Part shown: positions 1 through 680 of the stretch, piece after piece
Layout: each line of letters starts with the position of its first letter
How positions within the stretch are numbered: position 1 is the first letter of the stretch
Assembly: GCF_003334385.1 (NCBI RefSeq)
Contig: NZ_QOWN01000151.1
From: Escherichia coli
Lineage (GTDB): Bacteria > Pseudomonadota > Gammaproteobacteria > Enterobacterales > Enterobacteriaceae
DNA length: 680 nucleotides
Strand: one strand, 5' to 3'
Notes under the pieces: model-generated
The model's database searches: none
Seen by the model: the letters and a program-made list of their open reading frames with translations, nothing else
What the model was told of the DNA's origin: nothing
Translations under genes and position numbers: made by a program

Positions 1-680
1 CTGAAACGTATTTTGCCTGGTAACGGGCGTCATCAAGTGCATTATGGCGCTCACCTTCGAATGGAATAGCCGTTCTGGCATCGAAGTCTATGGCTTTCCC
101 CAGCTCAACGATTGTGCGTACATCGCGATCGTTGTAGTAACGCCACGGGCAGGGGATCCCCTGCCGTTCGTATGAACGGCGCAAAATCGTGTTGTCGAAG
201 TTGGCTCCATTTCCCCAAACCTGAACAAAAAATTCACCGGAGTTTTCGTCGATAAATTCCCGCAATTGTAACAGTGCATCATCTAACGGGATTTCATCGG
301 TCATAATGGCAGATTGCGCTTCGCGTGATTGCTTAAGCCACCATTTAATGGTGTCCCGATCAATGACTCCGCCAGCAGTTTCCAGATCGATAGTCTTACT
401 AAATTCCGGTCCCATATCTCCGGTTTGCGGATCGAAAAATATTGCACCTATTGAGATGATCGGGGCATCAGGATTTTTTCCCATGGTTTCAAGGTCGATC
501 ATTAGATGGTCACACGTCCTGCTGGTGGATGTGATTTCTTGATGACCGTTCACCTTAATTGAGTGATCTGCCGTCTCGCCAGTTTCATTATCGCTATCGT
601 GATGCTGATTGCCGCCAGTGTTCTCCTTGTGTGGATGTTCAGCGCCTTCCATTTCCTCCGGATCATCTTCCTGAACTTCA
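1..680 (-). CDS. Internal fragment (no start or stop in window) of a DnaQ-like DEDDh 3'-5' exonuclease domain protein, preceded by an acidic His-rich linker; possibly part of a prophage RecE/exodeoxyribonuclease VIII-like multi-domain nuclease
   Basis: Seen in sequence: the minus-strand frame with codons 302-304, 299-301 etc. has no stop codon from 679 to 2 (about 226 codons), against roughly 10 stops expected by chance. Translation contains Exo I LMIDLETMG followed by a hydrophobic strand PIISIGAIFFD, Exo II VWGNGANFDNTIL, and Exo III ERHNALDDARYQAKYV, matching the order and spacing of DEDDh exonucleases. The RecE-like attribution is from recalled domain architectures and is unverified. Confidence 0.85.
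2..508 (-). other. DEDDh 3'-5' exonuclease catalytic domain, truncated at its C-terminal side by the window edge
   Basis: Predicted catalytic residues: Exo I Asp at 494-496 and Glu at 488-490 (IDLET); Exo II Asp at 194-196 (ANFD); Exo III His at 44-46 and Asp at 29-31 (HNALDD). A His in Exo III defines the DEDDh rather than the DEDDy subgroup. Motif I to II spacing is about 100 residues and II to III about 50, typical for the fold. Confidence 0.75.
148..165. repeat. Perfect 18-bp palindrome ggcaggggatcccctgcc, centred on GGATCC/GATC, inside the coding sequence
   Basis: Seen in sequence: positions 148-165 equal their own reverse complement; symmetry breaks at 147/166. It encodes RQGIPCPW in the main minus-strand frame. 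It can be read as a 7-bp GC-rich stem (ggcaggg/ccctgcc) with a gatc loop. Confidence 0.9.
521..679 (-). other. Acidic, His-rich low-complexity segment, probably a disordered inter-domain linker N-terminal to the exonuclease domain
   Basis: Translation EVQEDDPEEMEGAEHPHKENTGGNQHHDSDNETGETADHSIKVNGHQEITSTSRT is dominated by E, D, H, G, T and N, has no hydrophobic core pattern, and is in frame and continuous with the exonuclease domain. Confidence 0.6.

Follow-up and report, generated by a model that had tools for sequence, protein, structure and literature searches.

The dense GATC sites of a prophage exonuclease gene in Escherichia coli are very probably a by-product of the protein encoded there

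A 680-nt stretch of the Escherichia coli chromosome (the window, by which we mean the whole stretch of DNA analysed) contains nine GATC tetramers, and the question that this locus raises is whether these sites form a methylation-related signal or simply accompany the protein encoded beneath them. In a Dam+ host, GATC sites are fully methylated, become briefly hemimethylated behind the replication fork and are then open to SeqA and MutH. A recount places the nine sites exactly where they had originally been reported, i.e., at positions 127, 155, 358, 385, 430, 458, 497, 565 and 661, and the roughly threefold excess over the naive expectation also holds, with nine sites against the 2.57 expected from a zero-order model with the window's own base composition. 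This amounts to one GATC per 76 bp versus one per 247 bp, or 2.76 per 680 nt, in a 150-kb chromosomal reference made up of three widely separated regions of the same chromosome (L003, L004 and L005), in which only 0.5% of the 680-nt windows reach at least nine sites. More realistic null models leave less of this excess: shuffles that preserve dinucleotides yield 4.96 ± 2.02 GATC, with nine of the 200 shuffles reaching nine sites, and the maximal-order Markov (trinucleotide) expectation, N(GAT)·N(ATC)/N(AT) = 24·21/62, is 8.13. Stretches denser than the window were also observed in the chromosomal reference, i.e., at the 3' end of glgP (L005 19604-20645), with up to 13 GATC per 680 nt, and in acrA (L003 44829-46184), with 10 per 680 nt.

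The window is 100% identical to positions 1488006-1488685 of NZ_CP032515.1 and lies inside the minus-strand CDS at 1487965-1490436. Minus frame 1 is open throughout positions 1-680 and encodes residues 584-811 of an 823-residue protein annotated as an exonuclease (WP_113344110.1), whose 2472-nt gene (minus strand; L001 11960-14431 in strain 118UI) exceeds both ends of the window. Positions 1-508 (minus strand) encode a Rv2179c-like DEDD-type 3'-5' exonuclease domain (residues 642-813, the last of which lie beyond position 1), which belongs to Pfam family PF16473 with a match over model positions 2-177 of 177 (E = 3.4e-67) and also matches PF00929 (RNase_T) weakly. Seven of the nine GATC sites are found in this domain, while those at 565 and 661 are found in an acidic, His-rich linker (residues 585-641; positions 509-679, minus strand; delimited on the translation) that sits between a RecE-like N-terminal/middle part and the exonuclease domain. 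The RecE-like residues 246-625 match only positions 271-602 of the 877 positions of NCBIfam NF007259 (RecE), and the C-terminus of the protein is the PF16473 DEDD 3'-5' exonuclease rather than the C-terminal part of the RecE profile. An identity as exodeoxyribonuclease VIII/RecE was rejected, as the score of 273.7 bits compares with a curated cut-off of 1269 for NF007259 and the C-terminal part is unmatched. Judged from these profile matches, the 823-residue product looks like a fusion of a RecE-like part with a DEDD exonuclease, and the name "exodeoxyribonuclease VIII" carried by several phage records is probably a mis-annotation. DexA of phage T4 is a distant relative of the domain, with 28% identity over residues 59-192 of the window translation. 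The protein differs from the Rv2179c-like/DEDD family in that about 640 residues, which partly resemble the N-terminal/middle region of RecE, are fused upstream of its domain.

Two further features of the protein were observed. The sequence IDLET occurs twice in the exonuclease domain (window positions 376-392 and 487-503, minus strand; residues 644-648 and 681-685), in the contexts LMIDLETMG and KTIDLETAG, and each copy yields one GATC from a different codon pair; on the basis of what is known about DEDD exonucleases, we take the MIDLET of LMIDLETMG for the Exo I motif. A CxxC...CxxC motif, CTACGQTGGGNCPDCG (L001 ~12740-12800, minus strand; residues ~548-563), is encoded a short way upstream of the window, between RecE-like part and linker. 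It is conserved among the near homologues, possibly as a small zinc ribbon.

All nine GATC sites can be read from their codon contexts. Six consist of the Asp codon GAT followed by a C-initial codon for Pro, His, Leu or Arg, i.e., those at 127-130 (Asp-Arg, GAT CGC), 358-361 (Asp-Arg, GAT CGG), 385-388 (Asp-Leu, GAT CTG), 430-433 (Asp-Pro, GAT CCG), 565-568 (Asp-His, GAT CAC) and 661-664 (Asp-Pro, GAT CCG). The other three consist of a G-ending codon followed by the Ile codon ATC, i.e., those at 155-158 (Gly-Ile, GGG ATC), 458-461 (Pro-Ile, CCG ATC) and 497-500 (Met-Ile, ATG ATC, the first codons of the MIDLET motif). Asp and Ile account for 10.6 and 8.0%, respectively, of the 226 codons of the window, GAT is used for 17 of the 24 Asp residues (71%) and ATC for 9 of the 18 Ile residues. 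There are 25 dipeptides in the window that can be encoded with a GATC, namely Asp followed by Pro, His, Leu or Arg, a residue with a G-ending codon followed by Ile, and one Arg-Ser, and nine of them are realised as GATC. Among the eight dipeptides of the Asp-(Pro/His/Leu/Arg) kind, six are spelled with GATC, which agrees with GAT being used for 71% of the Asp residues. The flanks of the sites are heterogeneous (CGATCG, GGATCC, CGATCA, AGATCG and others), and a repeat search detected no DNA repeat unit under the GATC sites, with only short chance matches and no common flank.

When the synonymous codons of the window were permuted with the protein and the codon usage kept, 6.80 ± 1.61 GATC were obtained, and nine or more were reached with P = 0.14. 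A codon-shuffled count similar to the observed one is the result that the original prediction had itself named as speaking against its case, and that case does not survive it. Codons drawn from the usage of the whole gene gave 5.99 GATC (P = 0.08) and codons drawn from 11 flanking chromosomal genes gave 7.05 (P = 0.21), so that no selected over-representation of GATC was found under any of the three codon nulls. Since these nulls lie near the observed count, nothing in the window points to a special methylation signal; the window is GATC-dense, but not beyond chance given the protein that it encodes. The suggestion that an Asp-rich protein contributes to the excess was well founded, as the six GAT-Cnn sites attest; its restriction to only a part of the excess was not, for the codon null covers essentially all of it. 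Under the permutation null, GATC ranks 22nd among the 256 tetramers (z = 1.37), and another palindrome, TCGA, deviates more (z = 2.0). The observed count nevertheless lies above the mean of every null (z ~1.4).

The same permutation test was applied to 109 in-frame 678-nt tiles of long ORFs in the 150-kb chromosomal sample. On average, the tiles contain 2.87 GATC versus a mean null of 3.21; their z values have a mean of −0.31 and an SD of 1.01, and 7.3% of the tiles have z of at least 1.37. The mean z of −0.31 suggests a slight general avoidance of GATC in chromosomal genes beyond what codon usage predicts. The null mean of the window, 6.8, falls at about the 99th percentile of the null means of the tiles, and thus the unusual part of the window is the GATC propensity of its protein and not its synonymous choice. 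The whole gene contains 14 GATC versus a null of 12.87 ± 2.49, and the 1752 nt of the gene upstream of the window contain four versus 5.61. Taken separately, the linker contains two GATC versus a null of 1.83 ± 0.58 and the exonuclease domain seven versus 4.53 ± 1.43 (P = 0.08). A weak real enrichment of GATC is still conceivable.

Homologues were compared with the window at the level of counts and of individual sites. The ten homologous domains come from hosts of the genera Escherichia, Salmonella, Klebsiella, Vibrio and Pseudomonas, with 95% nucleotide identity for the closest and about 34% protein identity for the most distant. They contain from one to nine GATC, with z values from −1.28 to +1.61 and thus of inconsistent sign. 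The domain of phage Evi, at 78% nucleotide identity, has five GATC versus 6.74 under its own null. The window has the highest count of its clade, as is expected because it was picked for a high count. In the alignment, each of two homologues with about 77% identity retains four of the nine GATC sites, and independent neutral change predicts that 0.77^4 × 9, or approximately 3.2, would be retained. The fates of the sites differ: those at 127 and 661 are kept in all four near homologues, that at 155 is lost in two of the four, those at 358 and 385 have disappeared from the two homologues of about 77% identity, and that at 430 is lost in phage Evi. The site at 458 occurs in none of the four near homologues and, as the two closest homologues read ATT for ATC, is probably a recent synonymous gain. 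As aligned, the GATC sites are not conserved beyond the neutral expectation. With no consistent excess and a nearly neutral loss of sites, conservation was ruled out as evidence for selection.

The exonuclease gene of strain 118UI is part of a lambdoid prophage integrated beside ompW, with the excisionase and integrase genes directly downstream of it, which bears out the earlier proposal that the region is phage-derived. A window-like place (at least 80% coverage) is present in 4053 of 5426 complete E. coli genomes. Many E. coli chromosomes contain the window with 100% identity, and 17 records of a phage collection, including "PPompW" prophages and induced lambdoid phages, match it with at least 99% identity. 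Given this origin, the excess might be the compositional signature of a phage donor with more GATC than E. coli, an explanation to which the location in a prophage of strongly mosaic GATC density lends itself. The direction is the opposite of what this explanation needs, however, since the prophage outside the window, with one GATC per 391 bp, is poorer in GATC than the host chromosome with one per 247 bp; the original proposal that phage GATC content underlies the excess fails on this point. The rest of the exonuclease gene, moreover, is below its own null, the peak comprises a single domain and vanishes under a null with the gene's own codon usage, and the homologous domain can have as few as one GATC in other phages that infect Dam+ hosts. 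A GATC-rich donor is accordingly highly improbable. The GATC content of phage lambda is low, with which a GATC-poor prophage agrees. The window, which is the densest 680-nt stretch of the 50-kb prophage locus, is thus a local GATC peak within one protein domain of a GATC-poor prophage.

Several other features of the ompW prophage (L002 1-50000) were observed. Its GATC density is strongly mosaic: there is about one GATC per 170 bp in the terminase/head block (L002 ~26-38 kb), eight in the 12 kb from the end of the tape-measure gene through the tail-tip gene J and the tail-fibre genes (L002 38-50 kb), and none or one per 2 kb in parts of the early region. The prophage also carries a truncated pseudogene for a site-specific DNA methyltransferase, a fragment with an FFMGSGS motif, which adjoins a tRNA Ile-Arg-Arg cluster (the pseudogene and transposase features are at L002 18293-18580, 18630-18879, 19094-20307 and 41016-42229). 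The same IS3-family transposase is present in two copies, and as one of these is located among the tail genes, the ompW prophage may be defective.

The other proposal of the original prediction, that the sites might serve methylation-sensitive regulation, corresponds to a GATC density that has been selected as a Dam/SeqA-dependent element. Such an element could be an intragenic GATC cluster at which transcription is blocked once cold shock has stabilised the hemimethylated DNA, or a patch with strong SeqA binding, where remethylation is slowed and the neighbouring xis-int module is influenced. The density itself favours this explanation, as the window is in the top 0.5% of chromosomal 680-nt windows and is the densest of the prophage locus, and so does its position directly upstream of xis and int. 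Precedents are also available: a function has been proposed for intragenic GATC clusters (Riva et al., 2004; BMC Genomics 5:48, PMC493266), and a paper on the structure of SeqA describes a slower remethylation at GATC clusters, such as that in recB, and a preference of SeqA for GATC sites on the same helical face (PMC2691817). Against it stands the result that, with the protein fixed, the excess is not significant (P = 0.14), together with the loss of sites in the homologues at a neutral rate, the count of phage Evi below its own null and the existence of denser GATC patches in ordinary genes (glgP, 13 sites per 680 nt at its 3' end; acrA, 10 sites).

The arrangement of the sites also bears on a Dam/SeqA-dependent element. 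The spacings along the window are 28, 203, 27, 45, 28, 39, 68 and 96 bp. The procedure of Riva et al. (2004; PMC493266), for which they cite earlier work, screens for pairs less than 8 bp apart or triplets within less than 62 bp and defines a cluster as at least four GATC with an average pair distance of less than 18 bp, and the clusters found are reported to be common to E. coli and Salmonella. In the window, no two sites are closer than 27 bp and no triplet spans less than 71 bp, both beyond the limits of the preliminary screen, and the mean distance over the nine motifs is 66.8 bp, beyond that of the cluster definition, which further weakens the case for a functional cluster. Nor is there a cluster conserved in orthologues, with one to nine GATC in the homologues and four of the nine sites retained at about 77% identity. 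The 27-28 bp spacings correspond by calculation to about 2.6 helical turns rather than a whole number, and therefore the paired sites lie off the common face that SeqA prefers; on these spacings, no oriC-like SeqA sequestration array was recognised.

The surroundings of the sites point in the same direction. All nine GATC are within the ORF, and no non-coding GATC overlapping a promoter or a regulator site, as a Dam-sensitive regulatory element would have, was found in the window. The 1.2 kb around the window (L001 11600-12800) contain no sigma-70-like or other promoter-like site on either strand, and the terminator-like matches around the window number two versus 1.4 expected by chance, one of them antisense and one at the 3' end of the gene. 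A promoter or terminator setting for methylation control was thus rejected, with promoter-like sites lacking and terminator matches near chance. The window matches no Rfam family at E <= 1. A Dam-controlled packaging site resembling P1 pac was also rejected, as the GATC sites are inside a gene, the terminase genes are far away and the flanks are heterogeneous. With all sites in the coding sequence, no promoter-like site and no extra conservation, the proposal of methylation-sensitive regulation finds no support, and we consider a selected Dam/SeqA-dependent element to be quite improbable.

Three pairs of adjacent sites, 127/155, 358/385 and 430/458, are 27-28 bp apart. This regularity was noticed post hoc; the share of codon permutations in which one 2-bp bin holds at least three adjacent spacings is 0.3% overall and 0.7% where eight or more sites are present. 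The rarity of the pattern in the permutations is what speaks for a phased array that would be the target of a DNA-binding dimer or of a methylation-dependent factor encoded by the phage. Such an array appears exceedingly improbable when it is considered that the pattern was seen after the fact, that no motif is common to the flanks, and that the pairs differ in codon phase and lie within a structured enzyme domain. Furthermore, none of the four homologues has site 458, neither of the two with about 77% identity has site 358 or 385, and two lack site 155. Because the pairs are not conserved in the homologues, the 27-28 bp pairing is regarded as a post hoc coincidence, although no other lead is left over from the analysis. 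One may also combine the residual excess (nine versus about 6.8) with the three pairs and speculate that the 3' end of the exonuclease gene contains a weakly selected Dam/SeqA-responsive patch, which would couple the state of replication or methylation to the expression of the downstream xis-int genes or to the stability of the ompW prophage; this we hold to be highly doubtful.

The explanation that we consider very probable is that the nine GATC sites arise as a by-product when an Asp- and Ile-rich linker and exonuclease domain are encoded with the usual codon preferences of E. coli. The Asp- and Ile-rich stretch supplies the 25 GATC-capable dipeptides, and the usual preference for GAT and ATC is expected to turn about seven of these positions into GATC, where nine are seen. 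From what is known of Dam, SeqA and MutH, the nine sites would be expected to behave in a Dam+ host as ordinary GATC sites without a dedicated regulatory role. The density of GATC in the window is accordingly of little biological significance. Its interest is methodological: a threefold excess of GATC over a uniform expectation can come wholly from an amino-acid sequence and codon preference, and a window of 680 nt needs a protein-preserving null before Dam-related regulation is invoked. A frequency of one GATC per 247 bp, at least nine sites in about 0.5% of 680-nt windows and a prophage that is GATC-poor overall provide the calibration for this genome. Were a Dam/SeqA-responsive element present beside xis-int, the state of replication or methylation would be linked to the excision of the prophage, but nothing found here supports it.

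Known systems with several GATC sites help to place the window. SeqA arrays, such as those of oriC and the dnaA promoter, and Dam-controlled switches, such as pap and agn43, resemble the window in that several GATC are found within a few hundred bp. Those arrays and switches are non-coding, and their GATC sites are either close together on one face or within regulator sites by promoters, whereas in the window all GATC sites are in an ORF, no promoter-like site is near and the spacings are non-integral numbers of turns. The clusters of Riva et al. (2004; PMC493266) share with the window a local enrichment of GATC in enterobacterial coding sequence, but they are far tighter and are reported to be shared between E. 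coli and Salmonella, while the sites of the window are unconserved. Most similar in kind are the ordinary intragenic Dam sites of E. coli and lambdoid prophages, which consist of the same tetramer in coding sequences and arise likewise from GAT-Cnn and nnG-ATC codon pairs. From these, the window differs in its local density only, with one GATC per 76 bp against one per 247 bp, and this difference is accounted for by the amino-acid sequence.
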